Of a stretch of DNA of 64,000 bases, positions 5,941 through 48,348 are shown in pieces. The DNA is from Bacillota bacterium. GTDB lineage: Bacteria; Bacillota; Clostridia; Acetivibrionales; DSM-1351. Below the pieces are notes generated by a model. It had not been told where the DNA came from, ran no database searches, and was given only the letters and a program-made list of their open reading frames with translations. The stretch covers positions 7,260-71,259 of the forward strand of contig JAEZIB010000155.1 in the NCBI GenBank assembly GCA_023416275.1. Reading direction: 5' to 3'. Both the position numbers and the translations under genes were made by a program. Position 1 is the first letter of the stretch. Each line of letters opens with the position of its first letter.

Positions 5941-6032
5941 AATCTTATCTATTTCAATTACTTCACCTATTTTGCTCCCATTTTCTAATGCTTTGCCCAT
6001 TACTGAATATTCCTATTTAATTTATTATATAC

Positions 6033-9697: not shown

Positions 9698-9721
9698 ATT
9701 GTACCTCTTAAAAAGATAATT

Positions 9722-9749
9722 TTGTCATTAATTTTACCATTAATGACAA
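9722..9749. promoter_or_regulatory. perfect 11-bp inverted repeat (operator or 5'-UTR hairpin candidate) just upstream of the patatin gene
   Basis: TTGTCATTAAT-tttacc-ATTAATGACAA, ending 25 nt upstream of the ATG at 9697. Confidence 0.35.
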
Positions 9750-10052
9750 TAATAAGAAAGATATTTTTAAAAATTATGATGATTTTTTTACAAAATACTG
9801 CATTTTTATTGACCGATAGTCAACATAATAACAATTTACATCTCATCAGTTCCAATTTGTATTGGTATTTTACTATCTCAATTCAATATATGAAGTCTCA
9901 TTTATAAAGTTGTATTTTTATTTTGATAGTTGAAATTTATAGTAGGGCTTTTGCTGAACGGATAAGAACAATAAATTGAAAATTATAAAGGTACAATTAA
10001 ATGGTACAGCCTGTATTTAATCAAGAGTATCTATTTAACATTTTGAGCTTTG

Positions 10053-11177: not shown

Positions 11178-11426
11178 ACTAACCTCCTACGCCCCTTCTT
11201 GGGTATAAAAATAATGTGAAACAATTGGTGGAGTATTTTTTACTGCACATTCTTTATATGAAACCCACACTAGCAAAAACCCACTTTGTGGGTTTTTGTT
11301 GCTCGAAAAAGCACAATGTTCGCACAGATTTTGTTTTCGAAGCTCGAAAAAGCACAATGTTCGTACAAACTTTGTTTTCGAGGCTCGAAAAAGCACAATG
11401 TTCGTACAAACTTTGTTTTCGAGCTG
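11178..11426 (-). repeat. family-A composite: hairpin+SD module, AATGTG..CACATT pair, terminator-like hairpin and 3 tandem 41-nt palindromic units
   Basis: SD module at 11178-11212. AATGTG (11213-18) and CACATT (11246-51) form an inverted pair. AAAAACCCACTTTGTGGGTTTTT lies at about 11274-11296. Three units of GCTCGAAAAAGCACAATGTTCG(T/C)ACA.A.TTTGTTTTCGA(G/A) span 11301-11424. This fills the whole comM-dprA spacer. Confidence 0.85.
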
Positions 11427-20865: not shown

Positions 20866-21705
20866 TTAGTCCTTAGGTACAAAATATGGGTTATCACTGC
20901 CAGTTGAAAAAACTATGGTACCTTTCTGATTTTTGGTAATATTGTTTGTAAATATCTGTTTAAAAACTTTCAAATCATATTCAATGTTATCAAAATCTCC
21001 GAATTCAGCATCTATTCTTCCTTCAAAATTAGCTGTTACACAATTAATATCCGAAACCTTAATGGAAGTAAGCTTTTCATAAAACTTAATTTTTGATGTT
21101 TTATCACTTTTTAATAGTATATCACAAAATGGTATTAATAACTGCAGTGGAGATTCTCCTTTAAATTTTACCTCTTGTCCTAAATTATAGCTATCCACCG
21201 ATGTACCTATTATTTTAAAATATTTCTTTTTTATTTCAGAATCTTTAATGATTTCTAAAGCATATCCTTCTTTATCAATCAGTACGCTTGTCCCATTAGT
21301 ATCTAGAATTGCAAAAGGAGTTCTCTCTTGAATTTTAATTCTTATTGCTTTAGGTAACAAAGGTCTGACGCTAATAGATTTGACATATGGCATGGACTCA
21401 TAAACATTTTGTTCCCTATCGTTGAATCTAAAGGATATTAAATTCTTTGGTTTTTCTCCTAACATTTTAAATACATTTTGTCCTGTGATAAGCCCGGTAC
21501 TATATATTATATCGTTAGATGAATACTTTTTGTTACCTGCCACTTTAATTTCATCAACTATAAAAAAAGATGAGCGCGCAAAAATAATAGCAGCAATGCT
21601 AATAATAATAGTGAGCAATAATTTTCTAATTCTTTTTGCTCTCGCACGCTTCCTTTTTGAATCTTTTGTTTTTTTGTAAACAGCATTATTTGAAGTCTTT
21701 TTCAT
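20866..21705 (-). CDS. ftsQ: cell division protein FtsQ/DivIB
   Basis: Basic N-terminus, a single TM segment, then a POTRA-like region (IVDEIKVAGNKKYS). Position is in the dcw cluster. Confidence 0.75.
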   Translation of the reverse strand: MKKTSNNAVYKKTKDSKRKRARAKRIRKLLLTIIISIAAIIFARSSFFIVDEIKVAGNKKYSSNDIIYSTGLITGQNVFKMLGEKPKNLISFRFNDREQNVYESMPYVKSISVRPLLPKAIRIKIQERTPFAILDTNGTSVLIDKEGYALEIIKDSEIKKKYFKIIGTSVDSYNLGQEVKFKGESPLQLLIPFCDILLKSDKTSKIKFYEKLTSIKVSDINCVTANFEGRIDAEFGDFDNIEYDLKVFKQIFTNNITKNQKGTIVFSTGSDNPYFVPKD

Positions 21706-21711
21706 TTGTAT

Positions 21712-22631
21712 CTATATCCTTGTTATCTCTGCCCCAATTTCAGACAGTTTCTCTTCAACATTGTAATAACCTCTGTCAATGTGTTCAAGACCAGTAATAA
21801 TAGTCTCACCATGAGCAGCCAAACCAGCTAAAATCAATGCCGCACCCCCACGCAAATCCCTCGCTACTACCTGTGCACCATTAAGTCGGTTAACACCTTT
21901 TATAACAGCCATGCGGCCATCTATTCTGATATTAGCCCCCATTTTCAGCAACTCATCGACATGTTTATATCTGCTTTCAAATATTGTTTCGATAATAATA
22001 CTTGTGCCTTTGCATAAAGTTAATAATGCCATCATCTGAGCCTGCATATCAGTAGGAAATCCTGGGTATGGTAAGGTTCTGATTACTTCTACTGCATCTA
22101 ACTTAGTTCCTGAGATTACTTGGATATCATTGCGCTTGATATTAATCTGACATCCCAAATCCCTCAAGACTGATGCAATTGAAATAATGTGCTCAGGTAT
22201 AATATCCTTAATCGTTACATTACCACCTGTTATAGCCGATGCCACCATGTATGTTCCGGATATTATTCTATCTGGAATCACAGTATGTTCTACTTTAGTT
22301 AATTTTTTCTCATATCCCTTTATCCTAATAATGCTTGAACCAGCTCCGGTAACTTTTGCACCTATTTTTTGAAGAAAATTTTGCAAATCTATTATTTCCG
22401 GTTCTTTTGCTGCATTTCTGATAATAGTATCACCTTGAGCATATACTGCAGCAATCATAGCATTTTCTGTTGCTCCCACACTTGGATAGTCAAGATATAT
22501 TTCACAGCCTTTTAGTCCGTCAGTTTCACAACTTATGTATCCGCCATTAGTATCATTTATTTTGGCGCCTAAGCTTCTAAGTGCTTTTAAGTGTAAATCA
22601 ATAGGTCTTGGGCCTATTTCACAACCACCTG
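21712..22631 (-). pseudogene. murA: murA, C-terminal roughly three quarters (from the active-site GGC onward), severed from its 5' part
   Basis: Reads GGCEIGPRPIDLHLKALRSLGAKI... through to a normal MurA C-terminus. The 60 upstream codons of the track ORF translate a family-A repeat. No SD or plausible start codon is present. Confidence 0.85.
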
Positions 22632-22782
22632 AATGTGTTACTATATTGGCAAAATCACTTGTGTTATTTAAGATTCGATAATGCACCATGTTTGCACAAA
22701 CACTTCTATATTGACAAAAACCACTTGTGGGCTTTGGGGCTCGAAAACGCACCATGTATGCAGCAATTTTCGTTTCGAGCTT
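22632..22782 (-). repeat. family-A repeat copy forming the left end of the segment that interrupts murA
   Basis: AATGTGTTACTATATT terminus (22632-22647), a partial unit ..GCACCATGTTTGCACA.., a hairpin AAAAACCACTTGTGGGCTTT, and the palindromic unit GCTCGAAAACGCACCATGTATGCAGCAATTTTCGTTTCGAGC (22739-22780). Confidence 0.8.
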
Positions 22783-23052
22783 ATTATACCACAATTTAAT
22801 ATTACCCAGCAATTGTGATATTTGAGGATATTAATGTCAATAATTATAAACAAAGTTAAATACTATAGCAGCAACTTTTTATATGCAAAAGATGATTTGT
22901 TAAATTAAAACATTATAATAACTTATTTATATGATATAATGTGTAATTGAAATGTTTTAGATATACCATTTATTGATGATTACATATTTTAGAAATTATA
23001 ACAAAGGAGGCCATAATCCATTTTACACGGAAATACGGAGATGGATAATATT

Positions 23053-24456
23053 ATGAAATTAAGACAAGTTATCTCTATTATTATATCCAAACTAACTATT
23101 TCTTTATTGCACCTTTTGAAAAGTGGCGGCACTACTCTGCCCGGAAAAGTAGCATTTAAGCTATACCCAGGTATACTTAAATCAATTGCAGAAAACTTTG
23201 AGATTATAATGGTTACTGGTACCAATGGCAAGACTACTACAACAAGGATTGTAGAAGAAATTCTAAAAAACAACAATGTAGATTACATAACAAATAAATC
23301 TGGCGCTAATCTTTTAAGTGGAATAACAACTTTATTCATTCAAGCAGTTTCAATTAGTGGAAAGCCAAAACATAGGGTTGCTCTCATTGAAAGTGACGAG
23401 GCTGCCTTTAATCAGGTAACAAAGCATATTACTCCAAAAGCTGTTATCGTTACAAACTTTTTTAGAGACCAATTAGATAGATACGGCGAACTTTATTCTA
23501 CACTAAATGCTGTAAAATCTGGTCTTGACCGAATTAGTGGTAATACAACTTTAATTTTAAATGCAGATGACTCAATGTGTGCATCTCTGGGAATAGATAC
23601 CATAAAACCAGTAATTTACTATGGGATTAATCAACAGGCATATCAAGGTTCTTCAGAAAATACAAATTCCGATGCTATGTTCTGTATCCTATGCAAAAAT
23701 AAATATGAGTATTCAAATCATATTTATGGACATCTAGGAGGCTTCTACTGTACTAATTGCGGATATAAAAGGCCCGATGCTCATCTAGAATGTATTGAAA
23801 TACAAGAAGCTGGTAGCAGCTACTCTACTATTAAATGCAAATGCTCATCCTCTTTGTCGCAAGAAAACAATGAGTTTGTCACCCGAATAAATCTTCCTGG
23901 ATTGTACAACATTTATAATGCAATGTCTGCTGCTGCTTGTGGTCTTGCTTTAGATTATAAGGTTGAGACTATATCAAGTGCGCTAAAATCCTTTGAATCT
24001 GGCTTTGGCAGAATGGAAGCAATAAATGTTATGGACAAGACTATTAAGCTAATACTTGTTAAAAATCCTACAGGATTTAATCAAGTTCTCAGCTTTTTAG
24101 CTCTTGAGAATCAAGCGTTAAATACTGCTTTTTTGATTAATGATAACTTAGCTGATGGAACCGATATTTCATGGCTGTGGGATGTTGATTTTGAGCAATT
24201 GAATAATGTATCCGATAAAATTGACGGATTGATTACCTCAGGTGTAAGGGGCGAGGATATGGCTGTACGCCTCAAATATAGTGGTCTTGACACCTCTAAG
24301 ATCAAAATAATAAAGGATTATCACATGCTAATTGAAGAAGGCTTGAAAAAGACACCTCCGGGAGGCTGTTTTTACATCCTTCCCACATACACTGCAATGC
24401 TTGACATTCGTAGTATTTTAAAGAAAAAGTTTAATCTAAAGGAGTTCTGGAAATAA
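23053..24456 (+). CDS. murT: lipid II isoglutaminyl synthase subunit MurT (Mur ligase family with DUF1727)
   Basis: P-loop VTGTNGKTTT, the Cys4 ribbon CILC...CTNC typical of MurT, and one-nucleotide overlap (TAATG) with gatD. Start chosen at ATG 23053 (GGAG N9). Confidence 0.85.
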   Translation: MKLRQVISIIISKLTISLLHLLKSGGTTLPGKVAFKLYPGILKSIAENFEIIMVTGTNGKTTTTRIVEEILKNNNVDYITNKSGANLLSGITTLFIQAVSISGKPKHRVALIESDEAAFNQVTKHITPKAVIVTNFFRDQLDRYGELYSTLNAVKSGLDRISGNTTLILNADDSMCASLGIDTIKPVIYYGINQQAYQGSSENTNSDAMFCILCKNKYEYSNHIYGHLGGFYCTNCGYKRPDAHLECIEIQEAGSSYSTIKCKCSSSLSQENNEFVTRINLPGLYNIYNAMSAAACGLALDYKVETISSALKSFESGFGRMEAINVMDKTIKLILVKNPTGFNQVLSFLALENQALNTAFLINDNLADGTDISWLWDVDFEQLNNVSDKIDGLITSGVRGEDMAVRLKYSGLDTSKIKIIKDYHMLIEEGLKKTPPGGCFYILPTYTAMLDIRSILKKKFNLKEFWK

Positions 24457-25202
24457 TGTTAGATTTAAATATTTGTCATCTATACCCTGATCTACTGAAT
24501 ACCTACGGAGACAGAGGAAATTTGTTAGCTCTTCAAAAACGGGCTCAGTGGCATGGCATTAATACAACTGTACAAAACGTAACAATTGGTGATAATTTTG
24601 ACGCTTCTGCTTTCGATATTATTTTTTTAGGTGGTGGACAAGATTATGAGCAAGAAATTATCCAAAAAGATGTTCTAGAACAAAAGAACACTGAAATAAA
24701 AAATGCCATTGACAATATGAAGGTTTTTCTATGTATTTGCGGTGGCTATCAGCTTATGGGTAAATATTACAAAACCTGGGACGGCAAGGAGATAGAGTTT
24801 CTTGGAGCTCTAGATTTATGGACTGTTGGTGGCAAGGAAAGAATGATAGGAAATATTGTTTTTGAAAGCGATTTTATAATGGATAATGGCAATCCTCTTA
24901 AAATTGTTGGATTTGAAAATCACTCAGGCAGAACTTACTTAGGTGAAAATATTCGTCCTTTGGGTAAGGTCCTCTTTGGTAATGGAAATAACGGTACTGA
25001 TGGTTATGAAGGAGCGGTATACAATAATGTTTACTGTTCCTATTCTCATGGAAGCCTTCTTCCTAAAAATCCTATGCTGACAGATCATTTACTGACTTTA
25101 GCATTAAAACAAAAATATAATGATTTTGATTCCCTTGGGATGTTGGATGATACATTTGAAAATGCAGCAAGAAACACTGTTATTCAAAGAATACTAAAAT
25201 AA
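24456..25202 (+). CDS. gatD: glutamine amidotransferase GatD (CobQ-like GATase, MurT partner)
   Basis: Nucleophile elbow ICGGYQLMG plus the downstream His region. Overlaps the murT stop by one nucleotide. Confidence 0.85.
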   Translation: MLDLNICHLYPDLLNTYGDRGNLLALQKRAQWHGINTTVQNVTIGDNFDASAFDIIFLGGGQDYEQEIIQKDVLEQKNTEIKNAIDNMKVFLCICGGYQLMGKYYKTWDGKEIEFLGALDLWTVGGKERMIGNIVFESDFIMDNGNPLKIVGFENHSGRTYLGENIRPLGKVLFGNGNNGTDGYEGAVYNNVYCSYSHGSLLPKNPMLTDHLLTLALKQKYNDFDSLGMLDDTFENAARNTVIQRILK

Positions 25203-25248
25203 AAAAGCTGATATTTTTTTGTTAAATTTTACAATATTAAAAAAATGG

Positions 25249-25278
25249 TTGACTTCATTTGTAAAAACATGTTAGTAT
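25249..25278 (+). promoter_or_regulatory. putative sigma-A promoter of the aroF leader
   Basis: TTGACT-18 nt-TAGTAT immediately upstream of the T-box leader. Confidence 0.4.
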
Positions 25279-25299
25279 TTATTTAATATAATATTTGTA

Positions 25300-25575
25300 A
25301 CGAAATGTGATGAATGGGAAAAGTAAATTATATGTGTCTTTACAGCGAGCAATGAGATGATGGAAGCATTGCAGGATAGTATACTTGAAGTTCTCCCACG
25401 AACAGTTGGCTGAAACTTATATGTAGGTCGTACCGGGTCTTCCCGTTATAGAAGGAGTGTATCGGATAGCTTATGGTTTTCCTGTACATGTATGAGTGGG
25501 TTTTAACCAATTTGGGTGGTAACGCGTGGATACAAGTCTTCGTCCCTATTTTATTAGGGATGAGGGCTTTTTTTA
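25300..25575 (+). promoter_or_regulatory. T-box leader (probably Phe-specific) with intrinsic terminator
   Basis: GTGATGA K-turn motif and Stem-I motifs AGCGAG and GATGATGGAAG. T-box core CAATTTGGGTGGTAACGCG at 25508-25526. A 13-bp terminator stem (25536-25548 with 25555-25567) is followed by U7. The specifier context GAAG-UUC-U (25391-25393) parallels GAAU-UAC-A in the tyrS leader of this window. Confidence 0.85.
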
Positions 25576-25690
25576 TTTAAAAATACCTACTGCATAGTTC
25601 ATCACGAACCATTAACAGGTATAGCAAAGCAATTAAATCAAACAAGTATTAAACGTCTAAAAATTAACTTATCAAAGGAGGTGCAAGTCC

Positions 25691-25717
25691 ATGTCATTTC
25701 TATATTACTTATTGTAG
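25691..25717 (+). CDS. 8-codon upstream [11 protein letters not shown] (translational-coupling or leader peptide candidate)
   Basis: Strong SD (AAAGGAGGTG N8 ATG). The stop TAG is followed after 1 nt by the ATG at 25719. The aroF starts themselves have no good SD. Confidence 0.3.
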
Positions 25718-25718
25718 A

Positions 25719-26753
25719 ATGCAGGACATGGATATAATTATGATTATAGTAATGAAGCAGAATGCAACAAATCAAGATATTCAAAATGTTGAAAACAGGT
25801 TAATAGAGCTTGGGTTTAAAACACACCCTATAATGGGAGAAATAAAAACAGTTATCGGTGCTATCGGTGATAAAAGACTTCTAAATATTCACGCTGTTTC
25901 ACAAATGCAGGGTGTTGAAACGCTGGTTCCGATTATGAAGCCTTACAAGCTGGCAAGCAATGAACTGCAGCAAACACCTACAATAATTGATTTAGGAGAT
26001 GTAAAAATCGGTGGTAATGAAATTGTTGTAATGGCTGGGCCTTGTGCAATTGAGAATGAAAAGGATTTCGTCTCAACGGCTGTCAGTGTTAAGAACAGTG
26101 GAGCTAAAATACTTCGTGGCGGCGCATTTAAGCCAAGAAGCTCTCCATATGCATTTCAAGGACTTGAGGAAGATGGTCTCAAAATAATGGTAGCAGGTCG
26201 TGAAGCAACAGGACTTAAGCTAGTAACAGAAGTAGTTGACACCCGAGATGTAGAGCTTGTAAACAAATATACGGATATTTTCCAAATAGGTGCCCGAAAT
26301 ATGCAAAACTTCAGACTGCTAAGCGAAGTAGGTATGACAAACAAACCTGTTCTTCTCAAAAGGGGCTTATCTGCAACAATTGAAGAATGGTTAATGGCAG
26401 CTGAATATATAATTGCTGAAGGAAACCAAAACGTAATTCTTTGTGAAAGAGGTATACGTACGTATGAAACAATGACAAGAAATACTCTTGATTTAAGTGC
26501 CATCCCTGTAATAAAGGAAGTTTCACATCTGCCAATAATTGTAGACCCAAGTCATGCAACGGGCAATTGGAAATATGTCCCTGCACTTGCTAAAGGTGCT
26601 ATTGCTACAGGTGCTGATGGACTAATAATTGAAGTTCACCTTAATCCCCCAACTGCTCTCTGTGATGGTCCTCAATCACTGAGACCCGAAAGATTTGGTA
26701 CATTAATGGACGAATTGAGACTTGTTGCTCAGTCAGTTCAAAGAACTATCTAA
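25719..26753 (+). CDS. aroF: 3-deoxy-7-phosphoheptulonate (DAHP) synthase, type I-beta with N-terminal regulatory domain
   Basis: The N-terminal ferredoxin-like domain ([17 protein letters not shown]...TVIGAIGD) resembles Thermotoga-type DAHPS and is followed by a KDO8P/DAHP synthase barrel. The start is either 25719 (coupled to the uORF) or 25740. Confidence 0.9.
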
Positions 26754-26851
26754 TTGATTTGTAAAATTTGACTTTTGTAATTATTAACTGGATTTTTCGT
26801 TTGAAAATTGTATGTGTTCTACCATAAAAGGGAATTTGCTTAAAACAATTG

Positions 26852-26898
26852 AATGAATTAGTTGTTGAATAAACTATACTAATTCATTTAATTATTTT
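26852..26898 (+). terminator. putative terminator after aroF
   Basis: 10-bp stem AATGAATTAG...CTAATTCATT followed by TAATTATTTT. Confidence 0.4.
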
Positions 26899-27232
26899 AG
26901 CAAGCCATTGATTAATCTTCCATACATGGATTGTTTTTATTTATAAAGTTGAGTTATAAATTATATTAAAAATTTGTAAAACGTTAAGCATTAGTAATTC
27001 AAAGCATATTCCTTTTCCTTTCAGCAAACACCTATTTAATTGTAATGCTTTATATTCCATTTATAGTAAATCATTTTTTGCCATATATATATTATGCCAG
27101 ACAACAGAAAAAACACCTTACTTCACATAAATATCCATTTTAATGTTATCCTGTAAAATACCTAAAATTAAAATAGTATTATCTTTAAGAAGGTGTTATA
27201 TTATGCCTATGGCTTATTCTATTAAATAATTT

Positions 27233-27574
27233 CTAAAAGCCCTCATCAAATGGCTCCATTGAGAATTCTTGTACCCCATTATAAACAACCTTCAGATATT
27301 TTACATCGCCATATTTAGTCTTGTCTGATTCATTTAAAAGAATGTACACTGATGTATTATCATATACTTTAATGTTAATCCTATCAAAAATGTCTTTTTG
27401 CAATACATCCAAAACTGCACTTATGTTCTCAACAGCTGAATGGCTAGACTTGCTTTCAACAATTACCGGCATTTTAGAATTGTCTGGATTTAGTATTTCA
27501 ACATGTATAATTCCAGGCTCAATTACATTGTCTGTAGGATATAGTAAGTCTCTTTCAAAAAGCACTGATTTCAT
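27233..27574 (-). CDS. hypothetical protein (113 aa)
   Basis: ORF with an SD-like GAGGAGG upstream, co-oriented downstream of slt. I recognise no family. Confidence 0.5.
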   Translation of the reverse strand: MKSVLFERDLLYPTDNVIEPGIIHVEILNPDNSKMPVIVESKSSHSAVENISAVLDVLQKDIFDRINIKVYDNTSVYILLNESDKTKYGDVKYLKVVYNGVQEFSMEPFDEGF

Positions 27575-27622
27575 TTTTTTTCCTCCTCATAAAATGAAAT
27601 AATCCATATCTATAAAATATCA

Positions 27623-28201
27623 TTATTTCTGTTCACCGTAAAGCTTTTTGTATATATAATTATATCTTTTAATCTTTTTTACATAGTCCTCAGTTTCTTT
27701 AAAGGGTATTCTATCCAATGTTATACCGTTGCTGCTAATATCTGTATCCTTCAACCATTTTGCTACATTTCCGCTGCCTGCATTATATGCCGATAGTGCA
27801 AGCTCAACATTTTGATTATATTGATTGATTAATTTTGAAATGTACCAGCATCCAATTCTAATATTAGTCTCTGGCTTCAGTAACATACTGCTTTCAAAAT
27901 CCTTTATTTCAATTTTTTCTGCAGCCCACTCTCCAGTGCTATCCATTATTTGCATTAAACCTTTTGCATTTCTAGGTGAAACTGCTTTAGGATTAAAACC
28001 GCTCTCTGCTTTAATAATAGAATAAACAAGATTTTTATTTAAACCATATTCATCAGAATATTTCTCAACATAATTGGAATATTTGGTTGGAAACACCTGT
28101 CTTAAAGCATATCCTGCTAAGTTTACTGAAAAAATAATAAATAATATCAAGAACAAAAAAATAAAAAGTCCTTTTTGACTACTCCTAGTCTTCTTTTTCA
28201 A
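27623..28201 (-). CDS. membrane-anchored lytic transglycosylase (SLT/GH23 domain)
   Basis: N-terminal TM segment and the catalytic motif AESGFNPKAVSPRNAKGLMQIM. Confidence 0.85.
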   Translation of the reverse strand: MKKKTRSSQKGLFIFLFLILFIIFSVNLAGYALRQVFPTKYSNYVEKYSDEYGLNKNLVYSIIKAESGFNPKAVSPRNAKGLMQIMDSTGEWAAEKIEIKDFESSMLLKPETNIRIGCWYISKLINQYNQNVELALSAYNAGSGNVAKWLKDTDISSNGITLDRIPFKETEDYVKKIKRYNYIYKKLYGEQK

Positions 28202-28261
28202 ATAATCACCTCAAAATCAATAAAACTAAGCCTTTTTATAACTATCAGTAAATACAGAGGC

Positions 28262-28867
28262 TTAGTCACACTTATACTTTTCTAAAATGCTGTTAAATTT
28301 ATTTTTAACTTCCTCTTTCAGTTGTAAATAATCACCGTTGTTATAAATAACAGTATTTGCAATGCTAATATACTCTTCTTCAGAAATTTGTGATTTTATT
28401 CTGGACACTGCTTCGTTATAAGTCAACCCACTTCTTTTAATAATCCTGTCAATACGCAACTCCATTCGTGCAGATACTGTCCATACTTGATCGCATAAGT
28501 CTAAAAAACCTGTCTTTATCGGTATTGGGGCATCTATAACAATAATCATAGATTTTTGTTTTGCTAGTTCGTTTACTCTAGCTTGTATTTTCTTAGCCAC
28601 ATGGTTATGCATAATGCAATTCAGCTTTTGAAGCATATCCTCATCTTCAAAAACCATTTCAGCCAGCCTCTTTCTTTTTAGCTGGCCAAACTCATCAACA
28701 ATATCTGTACCAAATGTGTTAACTAGCTCTTCTAATGCATTTTCCCCAGGCATAACAATCTGCCTGCTGATAACATCTGCATCAATAATTTCAGCGCCCA
28801 AGTCTCTAAGTATTTGGCTGACAGTACTCTTACCGCTCCCAATACCTCCTGTTACTCCAAGTACCAT
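28262..28867 (-). CDS. coaE: dephospho-CoA kinase
   Basis: P-loop GVTGGIGSGKST. Start moved to MVLGVTGG (ATG 28867, AAGGA N4), 7 nt after the polA stop. Confidence 0.9.
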   Translation of the reverse strand: MVLGVTGGIGSGKSTVSQILRDLGAEIIDADVISRQIVMPGENALEELVNTFGTDIVDEFGQLKRKRLAEMVFEDEDMLQKLNCIMHNHVAKKIQARVNELAKQKSMIIVIDAPIPIKTGFLDLCDQVWTVSARMELRIDRIIKRSGLTYNEAVSRIKSQISEEEYISIANTVIYNNGDYLQLKEEVKNKFNSILEKYKCD

Positions 28868-28874
28868 TGAATCC

Positions 28875-31559
28875 TTATTTTGTCTCATACCAGGTTTCTC
28901 CATGCTTAACATCTACAGTTATAGGAACTGCTAATGACACCGCATTTTCCATACAATCCTTCAGAAGCTTTGAAACCTCATCTAACTCAGTCTTTTCAGT
29001 TTCTATTATAAGCTCATCATGTACCTGTAATATCAATCTTGATTTTAACTTCCTTTTTTTGAGTTCATTATAAACCTTTACCATCGATATCTTAATAATA
29101 TCTGCTGCAGTTCCTTGTATTGGAGTATTCATAGCAATACGCTCTCCAAAGGCACGCATATGGAAATTGCTGGACTTAAGCTCAGGAAGATATCTTCTTC
29201 TGTTAAAAACAGTAGTAACAAAGCCCATCTCCCTACCCTTTTCAACTGTTTCACTCATATATTCTTTTACACTAGAGTACTTATTCAGGTATTCATCAAT
29301 ATACCTTTTTGCTTCCTTTTTAGTAACTCCAATATCCTGTGCCAGACTAAAATCTCCTATTCCATATACAATACCAAAGTTAACAGCCTTTGCTCTGGAT
29401 CTCATCATGGGAGAAACCTCATTTACAGGGATACCAAATACCTTAGAGGCGGTAGTGGTATGAATATCTTCATTGCTATTAAATGCCTCAATCATATTTT
29501 TGTCACCGGTAATGTGCGCTAAAACTCTCAACTCTATCTGAGAATAATCGGCATCAAGCAGTACATAATTTTTGTCAGAGGGAATGAAAACCTTCCTGAT
29601 ATTTCTACCAAGCTCCAGCTTTATTGGAATATTCTGAAGATTAGGTTCTGTACTGCTAATTCTTCCGGTTGCTGTAACTGTTTGATTAAAGCTAGAATGA
29701 ATCTTGCCTGTATTTTTGTCAATGACAGTCAATAACCCGTCAGCATATGTTGATTTTAATTTCATTAATTGTCTATATTCAAGTATTCTATCTACAATCT
29801 CATGTTTTTGAGATAGCTTTTCCAACACCTCAGCACCTGTTGAATATCCTGTTTTTGTCTTTTTAGCTGAAGGCAGACCTAGCTTTTCAAACAGAATAAC
29901 CCCCAATTGTTTTGGAGAATTTATATTAAAATTCTCACCAGCAAGCATATAAATTTCATTTTCTAAAACAGAGATTTTTCCATCTAGCTCCTTTGAAAAA
30001 GTCTGAAGTCCTTCTACATCTACCTTGAAACCCCATAGTTCCATATCTGCAAGCACTTCAACAAGCGGTAGCTCAATACTATAAAATAACTCTTCTTGTT
30101 CATTTTCTTTAATAACGGGAGCAAAAGCTTGAACCAACTCAAAAATTACCTTAGCACATGTTGCACAGATTGTATTGGTGTCCATTTCAAGATTTTGTTC
30201 CAGCTTTTTACCGTGTTTATCATACAAATTTTCTGCAGGAGTTATCGCCTTATTCAGAATATCCTCCGATAACTCCGAAATCCTATAACTGCTTCTGGTG
30301 GGCTCTAATATATAAGCAGCAATCATAGTGTCAAAGGCAAGACCATTTATCTCTATACCAGAAGCTTTTAAATGCTTAATAAACACCTTTAGGTCATGAC
30401 CATATTTCTTTATTTCCTTGTCCTCAAATATGTCCTTAAGAGCTTTTATTGCTGTACCACTTGAAAAATCCTTTGAGAATATAAAAACTGCCGGTATTGA
30501 ATTATCTTCACATGTATAAATGCATAGGTCATCTACAAAGCTCCCTGAAAGATCCATGTGATAATAAACAGTCATACTTTTGCTGGCTTTAATTGCTTTA
30601 ATGTACTGTTCTAAATCAGCTATAGAACTTATTTTTATGTGCTCAGTAGTCATGTTATCTAAAGCCTGTAAAGATGCATTTTCTTTTAAGCCAAATTTCT
30701 CTATAAAGGTTCTAAACTCTAGCTTCTTGAAAATATCATAAAGCTTGTCCTTATCAAAATCAACCCTAAGATATTGCTCCATACTGCAAATATCAGGCAT
30801 TCTTCTCTCAATTGTAGCAAGCCTTTTACAAAGAAAAGCCAAATCCTTATTTGCCTCTAATTTCTCACGAACGCCTTTCTTATCAATTAAATCTATATTT
30901 TCATATATCTCTTCTATACTGTTAAACTTTTTAATTAATTCAAGAGCAGTTTTTTCTCCAATTCCAGGAACACCAGGAATATTGTCTGAAGGGTCTCCCA
31001 TAAGTCCCTTTACATCAATTAGCTTAATTGGAGTCACACCATATTTTTCAAATACCTTCTGAGAGTCATACTCATCTGTTTCAGTTTTATTTCCTCTTGT
31101 AACTGGAAGCTTAATTCTTGTAGTTTCTGAGGCAAGCTGCAAAGAGTCTCTATCACCAGTTAATAAAATAGCTTCCATTCCATTTTCTTCTGCACATAGA
31201 GAAATAGAACCTAATATATCATCTGCCTCATAACCCACTACCTCAACCCTTTTAATATTCATAGCATCTAAAACCTGCTTGATAATGGGAACCTGCTCAG
31301 CTAACTCTGGTGGCATTCCCTTTCTTTGGGCTTTGTATTGATCGTACTCCTTGTGTCTGAAGGTAGGTGCTTTTAAGTCAAAAGCCACACATAAGTATTT
31401 AGGCTCTTCTTCTGCCAAATATTTAGATATAATATTTATAAAGCCAAATACAGCATTTGTGTGTACACCTTCAGAGTTTGTGAGGTTGGTTGTTTTACTA
31501 AGCCCATAAAAAGCCCTGTTCAAAATACTATTACCATCAACAATCATTATCTTTTCCAA
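28875..31559 (-). CDS. polA: DNA polymerase I
   Basis: 894 aa with a 5'-nuclease domain, a 3'-5' exonuclease-like domain and a family A polymerase domain (motifs DYSQIELRVLAH, QVHDELI). Confidence 0.97.
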   Translation of the reverse strand: MEKIMIVDGNSILNRAFYGLSKTTNLTNSEGVHTNAVFGFINIISKYLAEEEPKYLCVAFDLKAPTFRHKEYDQYKAQRKGMPPELAEQVPIIKQVLDAMNIKRVEVVGYEADDILGSISLCAEENGMEAILLTGDRDSLQLASETTRIKLPVTRGNKTETDEYDSQKVFEKYGVTPIKLIDVKGLMGDPSDNIPGVPGIGEKTALELIKKFNSIEEIYENIDLIDKKGVREKLEANKDLAFLCKRLATIERRMPDICSMEQYLRVDFDKDKLYDIFKKLEFRTFIEKFGLKENASLQALDNMTTEHIKISSIADLEQYIKAIKASKSMTVYYHMDLSGSFVDDLCIYTCEDNSIPAVFIFSKDFSSGTAIKALKDIFEDKEIKKYGHDLKVFIKHLKASGIEINGLAFDTMIAAYILEPTRSSYRISELSEDILNKAITPAENLYDKHGKKLEQNLEMDTNTICATCAKVIFELVQAFAPVIKENEQEELFYSIELPLVEVLADMELWGFKVDVEGLQTFSKELDGKISVLENEIYMLAGENFNINSPKQLGVILFEKLGLPSAKKTKTGYSTGAEVLEKLSQKHEIVDRILEYRQLMKLKSTYADGLLTVIDKNTGKIHSSFNQTVTATGRISSTEPNLQNIPIKLELGRNIRKVFIPSDKNYVLLDADYSQIELRVLAHITGDKNMIEAFNSNEDIHTTTASKVFGIPVNEVSPMMRSRAKAVNFGIVYGIGDFSLAQDIGVTKKEAKRYIDEYLNKYSSVKEYMSETVEKGREMGFVTTVFNRRRYLPELKSSNFHMRAFGERIAMNTPIQGTAADIIKISMVKVYNELKKRKLKSRLILQVHDELIIETEKTELDEVSKLLKDCMENAVSLAVPITVDVKHGETWYETK

Positions 31560-31647
31560 AATAAATTAGCCTCCTTGGGCATTAATATAAGATTATAGCC
31601 GATAAACTGACGAATTCGAAAACTGATATTATACAAAATTAATACAA

Positions 31648-32907
31648 TTATGAAAGTACAAAAAATATCCTAACAACAACTATTTCTTTTTCATTAATTA
31701 TTTTATTCATTTCCTGAATAAGTCTTTCTTTTTCAGCTTCATAAGCCGATGTATCCTCTTTATTTTTTGATGCAATTGTAATCTTGTTATCTATTTCCAC
31801 TTTTTTCTTATTTAATTCATTGTAGATTTCACTGATATCTTTTTTTATTATATCAGTTTTGGAGTTAAATTCCAGATGGTATTTTTCTGACCTTGTTTCC
31901 AGCAAACTATACTGATTTATAGGTAAATAGTAATCAACGTATTCTTGATCTATGATAAAGCTAGTTGCTGACTCAATTGCTGAAGTATTCGAGTTAGCTT
32001 TATCCGAGTTTTCAGCAGAATTCATATTTTTATCAACATTGTTTTCTGAAACTTTATGTAGCTCACTCGCACCAATATCGTTCATTAATAATTTTAACTG
32101 TTCAATTTCTTTACGCTCAGCTGATACCGCCATTTTTATTTCCGAATAATTTGAAATATATTTTGCAGTATCGGGATTATTACTTGATATTGAATATAGT
32201 AGTGCGTCATTTTTTTGTTGCGCATCTTGGCTACCGCTATCTGTGTCCACTCCTTGTTCAACTTGAAAAGTTCTCACTCTTAAATTATTGTCCGTTGCAG
32301 CATTTTCTTTATTATCAGTTGGTATTGATTCGCTGAAGGTTAATTTGATATCTTTATCTTCAGACATAACCCCCGCTGCTACCTCTTCAGTGCTCTTTGC
32401 ACTTGATAAATTATTTTCACCACTAGCTTGATCTTGCATGCTTTTTCCAACTTCACTGTTTAAATCACCTAAATTATCAGTAGTTTGAGCCTTTTTGCTT
32501 TCTAGTTGTGGGGCCTCACTGTAATTAGCAGTAGAATCGTTTTTTGTAACCATACTTGGCATCAAATTATATGCTAATAGTGAAATAACAAGAACAGCTG
32601 CCGTTGAAAGACTGGCAATAAACCTTTTGCTTTTTATAATAAACACTAATTTTTCTTGCTTATTCTTTTTATTTGAACTTTCGCTTACTTGTTGAAGTCG
32701 TATATGAAGTGCCTCTGAAAAATTCTCTGGAAGCGGCATATCCTGTTCTTCCTTACACAACTCAGCACAATATAAAGCTTCCTCAAATTTAGCTGAGCAA
32801 TGGCGGCAATTATTCATATGTTCTAAAAAGTCTGACTTTGTCTCATCATCTAGCAGCTCATCTATATATAACGAAATATATTCATCACATTCTTTGCAGA
32901 AATTCAT
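31648..32907 (-). CDS. anti-sigma factor (zf-HC2), single-pass membrane protein
   Basis: N-terminal CKEC...H..NCRHC zinc-finger anti-sigma motif, one TM segment, and a low-complexity extracytoplasmic region with a coiled-coil end. It lies immediately downstream of the ECF sigma gene. Confidence 0.7.
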   Translation of the reverse strand: MNFCKECDEYISLYIDELLDDETKSDFLEHMNNCRHCSAKFEEALYCAELCKEEQDMPLPENFSEALHIRLQQVSESSNKKNKQEKLVFIIKSKRFIASLSTAAVLVISLLAYNLMPSMVTKNDSTANYSEAPQLESKKAQTTDNLGDLNSEVGKSMQDQASGENNLSSAKSTEEVAAGVMSEDKDIKLTFSESIPTDNKENAATDNNLRVRTFQVEQGVDTDSGSQDAQQKNDALLYSISSNNPDTAKYISNYSEIKMAVSAERKEIEQLKLLMNDIGASELHKVSENNVDKNMNSAENSDKANSNTSAIESATSFIIDQEYVDYYLPINQYSLLETRSEKYHLEFNSKTDIIKKDISEIYNELNKKKVEIDNKITIASKNKEDTSAYEAEKERLIQEMNKIINEKEIVVVRIFFVLS

Positions 32908-32927
32908 TGTTATCCCTCCCTTCAATA

Positions 32928-33524
32928 TTATTTGACGTAATCAGTAAATAAATGTTCCTTATCTTTGCACAATAAATCTCTTAATTCAGCTCTTGCTCTG
33001 CTAATTCTTGATTTAACTGTCCCAACAGGCGACTGAATGATTTCGGCTATTTCATCATAGCTAAATCCATTTAAATCCCTAAGTATAATTATAAGTCTGT
33101 TTTTTTCACTCATTGTAGAGAGTGCATCATTTATAGCTCTCCTTTGAGCGTTAATCTCTGCCAGTTTTTCAGGTCCCGGACTTTTTGAAATCAACCTATC
33201 TTCTACCTTCAAATCCTCAAAGGTTTTTTGCTCAAGAGAAATATCTTTCTTGTTTTTATTTTTTCTCAAAAAATCAAGGCATACATTAGTTGCAATGCGA
33301 TATAACCATGTGGAAACAGAGCAATTGCCTTTAAAGTCTTTAATGTACTTAAATGCTTTTATAAACGTCTCTTGTGCCTGCTCACTTGCATCCTCAGAAT
33401 TATTCAACATTCTATAACATATATTGTATACCTTTATATAATAAATGCTGGTAAGTTCCTCAAATGCTTGAACATTCCCATCTCGCGCCTTTTTTAAAAG
33501 AAGATTTTCGTTTTCAAGTTTCAT
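32928..33524 (-). CDS. ECF-type RNA polymerase sigma factor
   Basis: 198 aa with sigma-70 region 2 (YRIATNVCLDFLRK) and region 4 (SYDEIAEIIQSPVGTVKSRISRA). Confidence 0.88.
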   Translation of the reverse strand: MKLENENLLLKKARDGNVQAFEELTSIYYIKVYNICYRMLNNSEDASEQAQETFIKAFKYIKDFKGNCSVSTWLYRIATNVCLDFLRKNKNKKDISLEQKTFEDLKVEDRLISKSPGPEKLAEINAQRRAINDALSTMSEKNRLIIILRDLNGFSYDEIAEIIQSPVGTVKSRISRARAELRDLLCKDKEHLFTDYVK

Positions 33525-33624
33525 AGCTTTTTGATCCTACTTTCTTATAATACTATTTCGTATTTAAAATATAGAAACAATATCCTAAATATTGCTTTGA
33601 ATATTTTTATCACCGATTAATGCA

Positions 33625-33740
33625 GTGCCAAGCTTGAAAACAAAGCTTGTACGAACATAGTGCATTTTCAAGCACAAAAAACCACAAGTGGTTTTTGCAG
33701 TGAAAACTATATGAAAAGGGGCGTAGGAGGTTATTATTTA
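33625..33740 (+). repeat. family-A repeat copy in the opposite orientation, with an orphan SD module
   Basis: Palindromic unit GCTTGAAAACAAAGCTTGTACGAACATAGTGCATTTTCAAGC (33632-33673), hairpin AAAAAACCACAAGTGGTTTTT, then AAAAGGGGCGTAGGAGGTTATT (33715-33736). No start codon follows that module. Confidence 0.75.
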
Positions 33741-34023
33741 AACAACATTTTTGCAAATCTTTGCTCCATCCCCTCAAATGTAACTATATAAAATGCAAAT
33801 CAAAATTCTAAATGCAAATTAGTATAAGAGGTGCGACTCTATGACTTTTATCTTAAGTATTATATCATAATATTTTTCTTATGTAATGTTAAAACAAAAT
33901 TAAGCTTTGTATACTATGTACATATTTTTCTAAAAAATTCTTTAAATTTTTTTAAATAATGAAGAAGGTTCTTGCTACTTTTTATAGAATAAGTTAATAT
34001 AAATTTTTTTGAAGGAGTTAAAT

Positions 34024-34440
34024 ATGGTTAGTACAATTCTTGTAACTGATGATAACGCTTTAGATAATGCTATTCTCAGAAATTATCTATATAAAGAACA
34101 CATCAATTTTGTTTCTGCACTTAATGGAAAAGAAGCACTGGATATGATAGAAAGCAGAAATATCGATATCATAATATTGGACTTAGAAATGCCAGTTCTG
34201 GACGGATTTGGATTTTTAGAAATGTTTTCCAAGACTGATTTATACAGAGAAATACCAATTATTTTGGCTTCAAGTGCTGAAAAAGAAGTTTACGAAAAAG
34301 CATTTGCTTATGATATTTTTGATTATATCAAAAAACCACTAACTCAGACAGATAAACTTGTATTTATCAATAAAATAAGAAAAGCATTGGAATTCCGAAA
34401 AATGAAATTAGAATTAAATAAGCTAAAAGTAATTGTTTAA
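34024..34440 (+). CDS. stand-alone response-regulator receiver protein (CheY-like)
   Basis: The DD / D(LDLEMP) / S / K(KKP) receiver residues are present and there is no output domain. Start at ATG 34024 (GAAGGAG N7). Confidence 0.85.
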   Translation: MVSTILVTDDNALDNAILRNYLYKEHINFVSALNGKEALDMIESRNIDIIILDLEMPVLDGFGFLEMFSKTDLYREIPIILASSAEKEVYEKAFAYDIFDYIKKPLTQTDKLVFINKIRKALEFRKMKLELNKLKVIV

Positions 34441-34443
34441 TGT

Positions 34444-34803
34444 TCATAATATAACACATTCACCTGGATAGCTTATAGTTACTTTTCCTTCTCTTGCCAG
34501 TAGTGGTCCCATTAAAATTATCGAAGACCTCATTTCTGTTGCAAGATTTTCAGGTACAATAGTAGAAGATATTGTAGACGAATCTATTATCGCTGTATTA
34601 TCTTCTACTTTTACTTTACATCCCAATCTTCTTAGAATATCTAAAATAACTTCCACATCTTTAAACATTGGGCAGTTTTTAATTATATTTTCTTCCCCGT
34701 TTAAGATTGTAGCTGCTAGAATTGGCAAGACTGAATTTTTTGCACCTTCAATTCTAATCTCACCCTTTAATTTTTTACCTCCCGTGACTATTATTTTGCT
34801 CAT
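34444..34803 (-). pseudogene. murA: murA, N-terminal 114 codons, severed at the active-site loop
   Basis: MSKIIVTGGKKLKGEIRIEGAKNSVLPILAA...MRSSIILMGPLLAREGKVTISYPG, then ECVIL-stop read from the junction. It retains a GGAGG-N9-ATG start site. Confidence 0.85.
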
Positions 34804-35329
34804 AATATAACACACCTCCGTCACATTGGGACATTATTAATATCTTTAATTCCACGTGATTCCCTCCTTATAATACTATAATTGGTAAGTCATATATATC
34901 CATTAACAGTCATTAAACTTTTCTAGAATTTAAAAAATTATAATTCTTTGATTTATTTATGTTTGTTCTGAAAACAGTTTAGGCATTGAGTGTTATTGCT
35001 TAATGAACCAAAACTATAAAAAATAGTAGTAGTGTTGAACGTCAATAATTTTATTTACTATATCCCCGCAATACTATTTTATGCTTTTATTTATAAAGTG
35101 TTACTACCCTATAATTTGTCAGGAATTAGGAACAAGTAATCTACTCTCAAAATTATGATAATTAAGGTTTGGGGCTTATTAATGGAATTGAGTTAAATAT
35201 AATTGCATGAATAATGGGAATGATTTATTTAAATCTATTATGTATAAATAGGGCAGTTTGAGCATTATACACACAATTTTACTTTTTAATTATATCTATA
35301 TTGTCAAAACTGCCCGTAGCATTATTCTT

Positions 35330-38480: not shown

Positions 38481-38812
38481 AATAACCTCCCACGCCCACT
38501 CTGGGCAATAAAAAATAATAAAGTTATCGTGGAGGTACGCCTCCTTCTTGATAGCTTAAGTCAAATTCTTTAAAGCTACCTCCCACGCCAACTTAAGGCA
38601 ATAAAATTAAATTAACTATCGTGGAAAACTTCTATTTAGGTATAAATATACAGTATTCCTTACAGCTTCACACCACACTGTCAAAAACACGCTTGCGGGT
38701 TTTTGTTGCTCGAAAAGGCACCATGTTTATACAATTGCCTCACTACAAAACCGCATGCGGTTTTGCGGCTCGAAAAGGCACCATGTTTATACACTCTTTT
38801 TTCGAGCTAGTA
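38481..38812 (-). repeat. family-A composite filling the whole trkA-trkA spacer
   Basis: Two hairpin+SD modules (38481-38513 and an orphan at 38576-38607) and a GGAGGTACGCCTCC hairpin. There are also two units of hairpin + GCTCGAAAAGGCACCATGTTTATACA (38709-38736 and 38768-38809), the second closed by TTTTCGAGC that overlaps the upstream trkA stop. Confidence 0.85.
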
Positions 38813-48163: not shown

Positions 48164-48306
48164 ACCTCCCTACTCAAAAAAATGTTTGCACAAACGTTTT
48201 TGATCTATACGTCCTTACACTGCCAAAAAGCCGCTAATTACTTTCTTACAAAAACACAGTGTAGAATTAGCTGCACATATATAAAAATGCACAAATGGCC
48301 TTTTAA

Positions 48307-48348
48307 GCTCGAAATAGCACTATGTTTGCACCAACTACTCTTTCGAGC
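48307..48348 (-). repeat. family-A palindromic unit
   Basis: GCTCGAAATAGCACTATGTTTGCACCAACTACTCTTTCGAGC. It supplies the last codons and stop of the upstream ORF. Confidence 0.7.

Follow-up and report, generated by a model that had tools for sequence, protein, structure and literature searches.

A 64-kb stretch of chromosome from a Bacillota bacterium (contig JAEZIB010000155.1; "the window" below denotes the whole stretch) holds the murA gene as two minus-strand halves, 34462-34803 and 21712-22626, which lie 11.8 kb apart. In our reading the window is probably the germ-line (vegetative) form of a conserved programmed DNA rearrangement, in which a recombinase acting in trans excises the intervening segment as a circle and rebuilds murA. 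That precise circular excision occurs in this clade we regard as very likely, and the locus in the window is itself likely to be an active member.

The two halves of murA and the sites between them

The gene strand of murA is the minus strand, and the split locus comprises the following features.

34462-34803, minus strand: murA N-terminal fragment, codons 1-114 (MSKII...TISYPG), with its own Shine-Dalgarno (SD) sequence GGAGGTG and an ATG at 34803; from the open reading frame (ORF) list, tblastn and translation
34444-34461, minus strand: read-through tail ECVIL plus stop, a translated recombination arm of non-MurA sequence
21712-22626, minus strand: murA C-terminal fragment, codons 115-418 plus stop (GCEIGPRP...ITRI), without a conserved start codon or usable SD
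22632-34460: intervening segment of 11,829 bp, predicted to leave as a circle with one core copy
34461-34466: core copy 1 (attL, N junction), CACCTG on the plus strand and CAGGTG on the gene strand
22626-22631: core copy 2 (attR, C junction), CACCTG
22632-22651, plus strand: P arm, AATGTGTTACTATATTGGCA, a full match to nnTGTGTTAYnnTnnnGGCA
34441-34460, minus strand: P' arm, AATGTGTTATATTATGAACA on the gene strand; the proximal 11 nt equal the clade consensus and the distal part is degenerate
34775-34855, minus strand: upstream ORF of 26 codons (VELKILIMSQCDGGVLYYEQNNSHGR) with its own SD, AAGGAGGG, overlapping the murA start

The ORF of the N fragment spans 34444-34824 on the minus strand and encodes MurA residues 1-114, after which it reads ECVIL and stops. 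That of the C fragment spans 21712-22812 (minus), enters MurA at GGCEIGPRP... and runs to a normal C-terminus; the in-frame sequence 5' of the fragment is the translated arm only (A-x-x-V-T-H-S-G). On the minus strand the two junctions read TATCCAGGTG/AATGTGTTATATTATGA and AATATAGTAACACATT/CAGGTGGTTGTGAA. When 22632-34466, that is the segment together with one CACCTG, is removed in silico, a 1257-nt in-frame ORF of 418 amino acids remains. Residues 1-415 of the joined MurA align gap-free at PGGC to 6q03 (E = 3e-134) and to more than 30 other MurA structures, the N fragment aligns to residues 1-114 of solved MurA, and Pfam PF00275 is recorded on both fragments. Judged from its sequence, the joined product is predicted to be full-length MurA, with the EPSP-synthase fold and the PGGC active-site loop. 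The original prediction, made from the letters of the window, had taken the pieces for two halves of one gene and not for paralogues, and the in-frame join and gap-free alignment bear this out. It had also put the break exactly at the catalytic-Cys codon; the break does fall within the PGGC loop, but between the codons of Gly114 and Gly115, so that Cys116, the equivalent of E. coli Cys115, follows one codon further on.

The ends of the segment read AATGTGTTACTATATT and AATATAACACATT and form a perfect 9-bp inverted repeat with a weaker match beyond; its base composition is the same as that of the flanks. These inverted ends, the ECVIL-stop tail and the copies of CACCTG at 22626-22631 and 34461-34466 had all been described before and are present in the sequence as stated. 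So is the asymmetry between the pieces, the N fragment having GGAGGTG ahead of its ATG at 34803 and the C fragment having no conserved start. The element side of the C junction carries nnTGTGTTAYnnTnnnGGCA or a near variant in all nine genomes compared, and the N junction carries an inverted copy of the same arm motif, seen in DNA in three loci (L084, L086 and L088) and inferred elsewhere from conserved protein tails. In 1.7 Mb of related sequence (93 loci) the motif occurs seven times, every time at a murA junction or a circle junction. The exact match in the window is at 22634-22651, where 0.17 matches would be expected by chance with one mismatch allowed.

The direct repeat common to both junctions varies in length: it is 6 bp in the window, 10 bp in the metagenome scaffold L085, 12 bp in the strain represented by loci L088 and L089, and GGTG only in the scaffold L084. 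The earlier reading of CACCTG as a target duplication left by an insertion does not fit this range of 4-12 bp, which is better explained by a recombination core. A crossover in the core is needed to restore GGT-GGT-TGT. The window allows a crossover only inside CAGGTG, since the junctions diverge at the two bases that follow (AA versus GT) and Gly115 needs GT. If a 6-bp overlap were required, the third base of the Pro codon would be expected to be equal at both junctions; in L084 it is unequal (CGGGTG versus CAGGTG), so the obligatory identity is at most GGTG, which we use as a weak argument for a serine-type crossover.

Several further observations concern the murA start and the segment ends. 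A 14-mer, CATAATATAACACA, is present at 34445-34458 and again at 34801-34814, and the ribosome-binding and start region of murA at 34797-34814 (TGTGTTATATTATGAGCA) equals the N-junction arm at 34441-34458 (TGTGTTATATTATGAACA) in 17 of 18 nt. The likeness is limited to the window and is weaker in Ruminiclostridium herbifermentans (locus L083); it may reflect a short gene conversion or a pseudo-site. The shared string, remarked on in the original prediction, is therefore real in the window, but it is not conserved beyond the lineage of the window and L083 and is not part of the mechanism. The position and much of the sequence of the 26-codon upstream ORF are kept in L083, L001, L093, L084 and L085, and a leader peptide or translational coupling is possible.

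Five loci (L004, L005, L084, L024 and L089) have extended -10 boxes (TGnTATAAT; TGATATAAT, TGGTATAAT, TGGTAAAAT) 25-35 nt upstream of the C-junction core. These boxes point from within the element end towards the murA C fragment and ftsQ, and may keep ftsQ and the genes downstream of it transcribed in the split state. The genome of the window also contains REP-like repeats, here called family A, with a 41-nt palindromic unit (GCTCGAAAAAGCACAATGTTCGTACAAACTTTGTTTTCGAG) that occurs singly or in tandem arrays of 2-3 and is always intergenic (11301-11423, 22675-22782, 33630-33697, 38699-38807 and 48298-48346). The family is confined to the lineage of the window, L083 and L003. In the lineage of the window, family-A repeats part the arm from the nearest extended -10 box (22889-22862, minus strand).

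Rejoined and circular forms, and conservation of the split

A full-length MurA (P0002) that is 88% identical to that of the window is encoded on L001 (JGI 3300025575) and L002 (ERZ27294291), where the intact gene stands in the order coat F, coat F, murA, ftsQ, DUF1290, ftsZ, spoIIGA, sigE, sigG, nrdR. The N-terminal 116 residues of P0002 are 100% identical to P0145, which consists of the N fragment only, and its C-terminal part matches P0020, which consists of the C fragment only. Both of these come from sample ERZ27294293 (loci L088 and L089), in which the gene is split: in L088 the N fragment is followed by the sigma and anti-sigma factor genes, and L089 reads ...coaE, SLT, aroF, gatD, murT, C fragment, ftsQ.... 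Alignment of the rejoined locus L001 with L088 extends over 5949 nt at 100.000% identity, and that with L089 over 9359 nt at 99.98%; at the site the alignments share 15 nt. The junction sequences are as follows.

Intact site (rejoined murA): AAGCTATC-CAGGTGGTTGTG-AAATAGG
N junction of the L088/L089 strain: AAGCTATC-CAGGTGGTTGTG-TTACTTTATAGTAAC
C junction of the L088/L089 strain: GCCTATAAGGTAACACATT-CAGGTGGTTGTG-AAATAGG

The circle junction was predicted before JGI metagenomes were scanned for it with TAACACANNCNGGTGNNTGTGTTA, which gave two matches. One of them, L091 (Ga0209125_1010661, 4551 nt), joins, as predicted, the 5' part of polA, the anti-sigma and the sigma factor gene to murT and gatD. 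Its two parts correspond to the element ends of L088 (2218 nt, 99.955% identity) and L089 (2348 nt, 100% identity), and between them lies the 12-bp core CAGGTGGTTGTG. The other match, L090, contains no related genes and is eukaryote-like, and was set aside as a chance palindrome. All four forms (attL, attR, attB and attP) physically exist for one strain of a sister species, and the process is a conservative site-specific excision. Three independent assemblies contributed to this result, and a repeat of 12 bp is too short to cause misjoining in MEGAHIT contigs made with k = 141. The contigs that contain the rejoined form are 15 kb and 27 kb long. Another species provides a further rejoined murA, on L093, a contig of 1977 nt. 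Programmed excision had at first been called a long shot because of the loss of polA and coaE, but the finding of both a rejoined gene and a circle junction, with flanks 99.95-100% identical, supports it. In a terminal cell that loss would be no obstacle, and the genes would persist on the circle.

The metagenome assemblies hold both germ-line and rearranged versions of one strain. This strain also has a gene for an IS4-type DDE transposase of 537 amino acids (L001 1298-2911; L088 1362-2975), 2.7 kb upstream of murA; it is identical in the split and rejoined forms and missing in other lineages, and is therefore unrelated to the rearrangement.

The split is widespread among relatives. A protein search with the joined MurA returned at least 26 clusters comprising the C-terminal part alone, starting at residues 109-130 with 77-99% identity and including sequences from R. 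cellobioparum, R. hungatei and R. josui; in the same search only two full-length proteins were more than 70% identical to the joined MurA. A search with the N fragment returned at least 120 clusters, those listed being 115-200 amino acids long with 65-97% identity, among them sequences from R. herbifermentans, R. cellulolyticum, Acetivibrio mesophilus, Pseudobacteroides and Anaerobacterium chartisolvens. MurA sequence ends after YPG in 119 of the 120 N-fragment clusters listed. The tails then read [G/E/D]-C-V-[T/I/S]-L-[L/W]-A and continue as random sequence, with a total length of 1-86 amino acids; seven conserved residues followed by noise indicate a conserved DNA motif and not a protein domain.

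The complete genome of R. herbifermentans (CP061336.1, L083) and the metagenome scaffolds L084 and L085 have the same gene order as the window: N fragment, receiver, sigma, anti-sigma, polA, coaE, SLT, a small gene, aroF, gatD, murT, C fragment, ftsQ. The homologous segments measure 12.4 kb in L083, 10.6 kb in L084 and 11.1 kb in L085, and PolA is 73% identical to that of the window in L084 and 67% in L085. The comparison of synteny that the original prediction had proposed therefore reveals the same split and order in these relatives and not two complete genes. Its worry that the layout might be an artefact of assembly is removed by the recurrence of the layout in a complete genome and several independent assemblies. 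Three further loci (L003, L004 and L005) have cargo of the window type beside the C fragment.

In more distant genomes the split point is kept and the cargo differs from that of Ruminiclostridium. In L024, murT-gatD precede the C fragment, and beyond them lie a methyltransferase, a homocysteine methyltransferase, degS/degU, rpiB and a dihydroxyacetone kinase; in L086 the N fragment is followed by more than 20 kb of other genes. The N fragment of A. mesophilus comes directly after murG in the division and cell wall (dcw) cluster, and 3' of it are a gene of unknown function, a cyclase, a UvrD-type helicase, cobO, dapB, dapA, asd and spoIID. The polA region of A. cellulolyticus has a cargo-like internal synteny with no murA fragment beside it. 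These comparisons of gene order indicate that the conserved part is the sites and not their contents. In the A. mesophilus contig (LSMZ01000038.1, locus L092) the N fragment occupies 10001-10387 and follows mraW ... murE, murF, mraY, ftsW and murG. Its position after murG in Acetivibrio, and after coat F genes and tyrS in Ruminiclostridium, implies that it was parted from the upstream dcw genes in the Ruminiclostridium lineage.

Neither half is decaying. There are no stops and no frameshifts in six N and nine C copies, and the pairwise ratio of non-synonymous to synonymous substitution rates (dN/dS) lies between 0.03 and 0.15 in the N fragment and between 0.02 and 0.11 in the C fragment, with synonymous sites near saturation. 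Between the window and R. herbifermentans, dN/dS is 0.03-0.04 at a dS of about 0.3, and the fragments have therefore been under selection since the two diverged. Both halves of murA are under strong purifying selection and are not pseudogene remnants. In the current annotation of the genomes covered here, products of 119 and 128 amino acids in R. herbifermentans and R. cellulolyticum are named MurA, and fragments are called truncated or partial.

Mechanism, cell type and competing explanations

According to the mechanism that we propose, a stretch of 11.8 kb with ordinary chromosomal genes separates codons 114 and 115 of a murA paralogue beside ftsQ and is bounded by two inverted arms of about 20 bp that are putative recombinase-binding sites, each abutting a CAGGTG core. 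A recombinase encoded outside both the segment and the window would bind the four half-sites, pair the N with the C junction and exchange strands in the core; action in trans follows from the absence of a recombinase gene from the segment. The segment would be released as a circle with a near-perfect palindromic junction, in the window TAACACATT-CAGGTG-AATGTGTTA (as a sequence to look for, GTAACACATT-CAGGTG-AATGTGTTAT), and the chromosome would be left with TATCCAGGTGGTTGTGAA and an intact gene for a MurA of 418 amino acids.

Large serine recombinases use imperfect palindromes of about 40-50 bp with a short central crossover, and only the centre has to be identical in attL and attR. The arms extend about 20 bp on each side of CAGGTG, and identity between cores is as short as GGTG in L084. 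An identity of 4 bp suits the 2-bp crossover of serine enzymes better than the 6-8-bp overlap of tyrosine enzymes and so favours a large serine recombinase, although we assign the enzyme to the serine class only tentatively. By analogy, it may be a large serine enzyme of the skin type, assisted by a directionality factor under sporulation control. A survey of skin-like elements reports that R. cellulolyticum has SpoIVCA-type recombinases both in a skin element within sigK and in a second element that interrupts spoIIID (10.1101/2022.02.25.481979), and the SpoIVCA-type recombinases of the genus are candidate enzymes.

We lean slightly towards an excision specific to the sporulation mother cell. 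Because the circle lacks replication functions and takes coaE and polA with it, only a cell that will not divide again could tolerate excision. The timing is suggested by the facts that the organisms form endospores and that the locus lies between coat F genes and ftsQ-ftsA-ftsZ-spoIIGA-sigE-sigG; moreover, the gene-rejoining excisions characterised in Bacillota all take place in the mother cell (PMC4191935, PMC5595907, PMC5025042). An origin in mother cells would also account for the presence of rejoined and circular forms in environmental DNA, because spores resist lysis and mother-cell DNA is released. In such a cell, loss of polA, coaE and murT-gatD would be harmless, and extra MurA could serve engulfment or cortex peptidoglycan. 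MurAB has a role in engulfment (PMC9600426), and a use for extra MurA in sporulation is plausible. Since cultured isolates grow with a split murA, another functional murA is needed, and we infer that a second, intact paralogue supports vegetative growth. With the segment lost in a terminal cell only, there would be no selection against essential genes inside it. As to origin, the simplest history, speculative but in keeping with the variable cargo, is that an ancestral element bearing a recombinase inserted in the murA of a common ancestor and that subsequent rearrangements, each with a breakpoint inside the element, replaced its contents with chromosomal DNA and carried the recombinase gene elsewhere.

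Several observations weigh against programmed excision at this locus. Neither the segment nor the other ORFs of the window that were scanned (100 amino acids or longer) contain a recombinase, transposase, integrase or directionality factor; likewise, the called genes of L083-L085 contain no Resolvase, Recombinase or integrase domain, and there is no recombinase in the L024 cargo or beside the N fragment of A. mesophilus. CATA-like boxes found upstream of murA by alignment could not be assigned to sigma-E or sigma-K. The rejoined and circular forms were seen in the sister species, at 88% MurA identity, and not in the species of the window, whose P' arm is degenerate in its distal half (ATGAACA versus TnnnGGCA), so that activity here could be reduced. 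Finally, the three forms of the strain come from different samples, and contigs alone cannot separate coexisting strains from cell types.

Two explanations accept the excision and differ on its meaning. It might be independent of sporulation, a stress-induced or stochastic switch to non-dividing altruistic cells that is driven by a tyrosine recombinase or a domesticated transposase. The data fix neither cell type nor type of enzyme, the circle junction, a 9-6-9 palindrome, is similar to the core sites of tyrosine recombinases as well, and no sporulation promoter is assignable; yet the organisms form endospores, the locus sits among sporulation genes, the characterised gene-rejoining excisions of Bacillota are all mother-cell events (PMC5025042, PMC4191935, PMC5595907) and the 4-bp identity block of L084 is shorter than the 6-8-bp overlap of a tyrosine enzyme. 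We therefore consider this explanation unlikely. Alternatively, an integrase in trans might move the 11-kb segment in and out of murA as an integrative mobile island, the rejoined contigs being strains that lack it. All of the attB, attP, attL and attR forms exist and derive from different samples, but the cargo consists of single-copy core genes of metabolism and replication (polA, coaE, murT-gatD, aroF) that are syntenic with the unsplit polA region of A. cellulolyticus, and the arrangement has been inherited vertically through species whose PolA identity falls from 96% to 67%. A strain without the segment would miss coaE and polA, the flanks of both forms are 100% identical, insertion sequence (IS) copy included, and no mobility genes are present, which makes an island quite unlikely. 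In a scan of viral contigs, the sole match to a phage attP with these arms lay inside an ORF of 4932 amino acids and was taken as chance. A 5-bp shift of a distal TATAG/GGC motif between attB and attP half-sites, which serine integrases would lead one to expect, was seen by eye in one strain, proved inconsistent across species and was not used.

Two other explanations do without programmed excision. The halves could be translated separately and assemble non-covalently into a split enzyme, with rejoined and circular molecules as rare by-products. Purifying selection on both fragments, the position of the break in a surface loop and the extended -10 boxes upstream of the C junction in L004, L005, L084, L024 and L089 are compatible with such an enzyme. 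However, the C fragment lacks a conserved start or a properly spaced SD (AGGTGG is a possible SD with no in-frame start after it), the starts picked by gene callers vary and in some cases fall inside MurA, and only translated arm precedes the fragment in frame; independent translation of the C fragment was rejected on these grounds. Selection at the protein level also leaves unexplained the 20-bp inverted arms in the DNA and the N tails of 1-86 amino acids that turn random after seven residues, and a form assembled in 15-kb and 27-kb contigs is no trace product. A split enzyme is accordingly very unlikely. A split intein or trans-splicing was dismissed in view of the same tails and of the absence of a conserved upstream ORF or start from the C fragment.

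The original prediction had preferred a different history, in which a small repeat element, perhaps of family A, struck murA, and the 11.8 kb came to lie between the ends of the element through later recombination of dispersed copies. On this view the gene would be inactivated and its halves decaying remnants. The inverted ends and the 6-bp flanking repeat do look like a transposon footprint, and family-A repeats abut the left end in this genome. Yet it is only in the lineage of the window, L083 and L003 that these repeats adjoin the junction; the split junction of L004, L005, L084, L085, L024 and L089 has none, from which it follows that they arrived later. The family-A unit lacks the arm motif, and an origin of the ends from a REP-like repeat or a miniature inverted-repeat transposable element of this family was discarded, the repeats being lineage-specific additions. 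The AATGTG...CACATT pair at 11213-11251, which had been linked to the ends, is unrelated to the junction motif, is not conserved and is a chance match. The end motif is single-copy, the flanking repeat ranges from 4 to 12 bp, precise excision has been observed, and lineages with saturated synonymous sites still show a dN/dS of 0.02-0.15 and no stops; this history is thus the least credible of those weighed here. An IS or composite transposon was rejected likewise, there being no transposase, an end motif unique to the junctions and a flanking repeat of 4-12 bp.

Gene neighbourhood, known systems and significance

The segment carries the following genes, assigned by Pfam or Rfam except where noted.

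23041-24456, plus strand: murT (MurT_C/Mur_ligase_M)
24456-25202, plus strand: gatD (GATase_3)
25301-25550, plus strand: T-box leader (Rfam RF00230, 115.7 bits)
25719-26753, plus strand: DAHP synthase aroF (DAHP_synth_1)
27233-27574, minus strand: conserved cargo protein of 113 amino acids and unknown function
27623-28201, minus strand: SLT transglycosylase
28262-28912, minus strand: coaE
28875-31559, minus strand: polA (PolA domains and homologues)
31648-32925, minus strand: zf-HC2 anti-sigma factor
32928-33524, minus strand: ECF sigma factor
34009-34440, plus strand: response-regulator receiver of a single domain; 20 nt separate its end from the N junction

Directly downstream of the C fragment is one flanking gene, matched by tblastn to the annotated genes of L001, L083 and L084.

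20866-21705, minus strand: ftsQ/divIB

The domain searches bear out the earlier description of the cargo as housekeeping genes without a transposase or recombinase, namely murT-gatD, the T-box, aroF, slt, coaE, polA, the sigma/anti-sigma pair and the receiver. The receiver is missing from the homologous element of the L088 strain and is therefore dispensable for excision. DUF1290, ftsA, ftsZ, spoIIGA, sigE and sigG lie 3' of ftsQ, and coat F genes lie upstream of murA; a rejoined murA would be contiguous with the ftsQ division and sporulation cluster.

Other features of the window are recorded here. At 4327-11177 (minus strand) dprA, topA and trmFO run straight into flgB, flgC, fliE, fliF and fliG. 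In B. subtilis these two groups are separated by codV-clpQ-clpY-codY; the four genes are missing from this interval, so that there is no Xer-type recombinase gene at that position. The topA ORF (6033-8417, minus) contains an 18/36-nt tandem repeat at 6051-6343, with about 12 copies of 18 nt, and its location in the 3' end of the ORF implies a repetitive C-terminal tail on topoisomerase I. An extended SD motif, GGCGTGGGAGG (CCTCCCACGCC on the plus strand), is present in seven copies (3235, 5646, 11183, 33720 on the minus strand, 38486, 38579 and 47990) against 0.1 expected. Most copies lie just 5' of gene starts (fliE, trmFO, dprA, two trkA, DJ-1), some with a short GCC...GGC inverted repeat ahead of them, and the whole may be a shared element of 5'-untranslated regions.

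Among known systems, the murA element most resembles skin (sigK; SpoIVCA in B. subtilis, CD1231 and CD1234 in C. difficile), which likewise has its gene halves on the same strand and is excised precisely to give a circle and an in-frame composite gene. The skin element of C. difficile has sites with a 12-bp motif and a 22-bp imperfect inverted repeat, and it is excised by the serine recombinase CD1231 with CD1234, a factor dependent on sigma-E and SpoIIID (PMC5025042). Both elements thus combine a short motif common to attL and attR (12 bp versus 6-12 bp) with imperfect inverted repeats of about 20 bp, and skin-type elements are present in the same genus as the murA element. Skin is reported always to have a recombinase at its own edge (10.1101/2022.02.25.481979), whereas the murA element has none inside. 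Skin elements are prophage remnants that target a regulator and are scattered among strains; here the content is conserved housekeeping genes such as polA and coaE, the interrupted gene encodes an enzyme of peptidoglycan-precursor synthesis and the split is fixed across the whole family.

SP-beta in spsM (SprA/SprB), vfbin, vrin, gin (gerE) and yin (yabG) are similar to the murA element in that a gene is rebuilt by site-specific excision linked to sporulation, and gin shows that an intervening element need not be prophage-like (PMC4191935, PMC5595907, PMC10747680). They differ from it in encoding their own recombinase and carrying dispensable cargo without essential chromosomal genes, and they are not conserved at family level with interchangeable cargo. 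A composite transposon or IS shares terminal inverted repeats and a short flanking direct repeat with the murA element; unlike a gene interrupted by a transposon, murA stays under selection and is restored precisely, and the ends are single-copy and come without a transposase.

Further afield, the nifD, fdxN and hupL elements of Anabaena heterocysts (XisA, XisF and XisC) undergo programmed excision in a terminal cell that restores a metabolic gene; these elements are cyanobacterial, have recombinase genes within them and use different sites. The internal eliminated sequences of ciliates are germ-line interruptions removed precisely from the somatic genome by an enzyme encoded elsewhere, in a eukaryotic process that relies on domesticated transposases and RNA guidance. 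The latter is a parallel in concept only and implies no relationship.

By function, the murA element resembles the gene-intervening elements of spore formers and those of heterocysts, but it does not bear a recombinase of its own. In the full-text literature searched, no split or rearranged murA is described, and the available part of the Firmicutes survey of skin-like elements mentions sigK, cotJC and spoIIID but not murA (10.1101/2022.02.25.481979). The known cases of gene rejoining in bacteria are explained as captured prophages with their own recombinase and dispensable DNA, and the murA case departs from them in four ways: core chromosome is excised; the recombinase would act in trans; the sites have been kept across genera while the cargo changed; and what is restored is the gene for the fosfomycin target, the enzyme of the first committed step in peptidoglycan synthesis, split in its catalytic loop.

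At its widest, our reading is that in a family of cellulolytic spore-forming Clostridia (Ruminiclostridium, Acetivibrio and relatives) a murA paralogue is split in the germ line and is rebuilt only in a terminal cell, by deletion of a segment of ordinary chromosome, essential genes (polA, coaE, murT-gatD) among its contents, through a recombinase encoded elsewhere. The segment would then be a domesticated, recombinase-less region whose contents have been swapped for host genes, and its removal a programmed elimination of DNA from the mother-cell chromosome. We give even chances to this reading in its entirety. It should be directly testable in R. cellulolyticum H10, which has the N fragment and a complete genome and which we take to be genetically tractable. 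If the mother-cell timing is true, a terminal bacterial cell tolerates the programmed loss of essential chromosomal genes, the supply of peptidoglycan precursors in sporulation has a new control point, and intervening elements could become fixed features of their hosts after losing all mobile-element genes.

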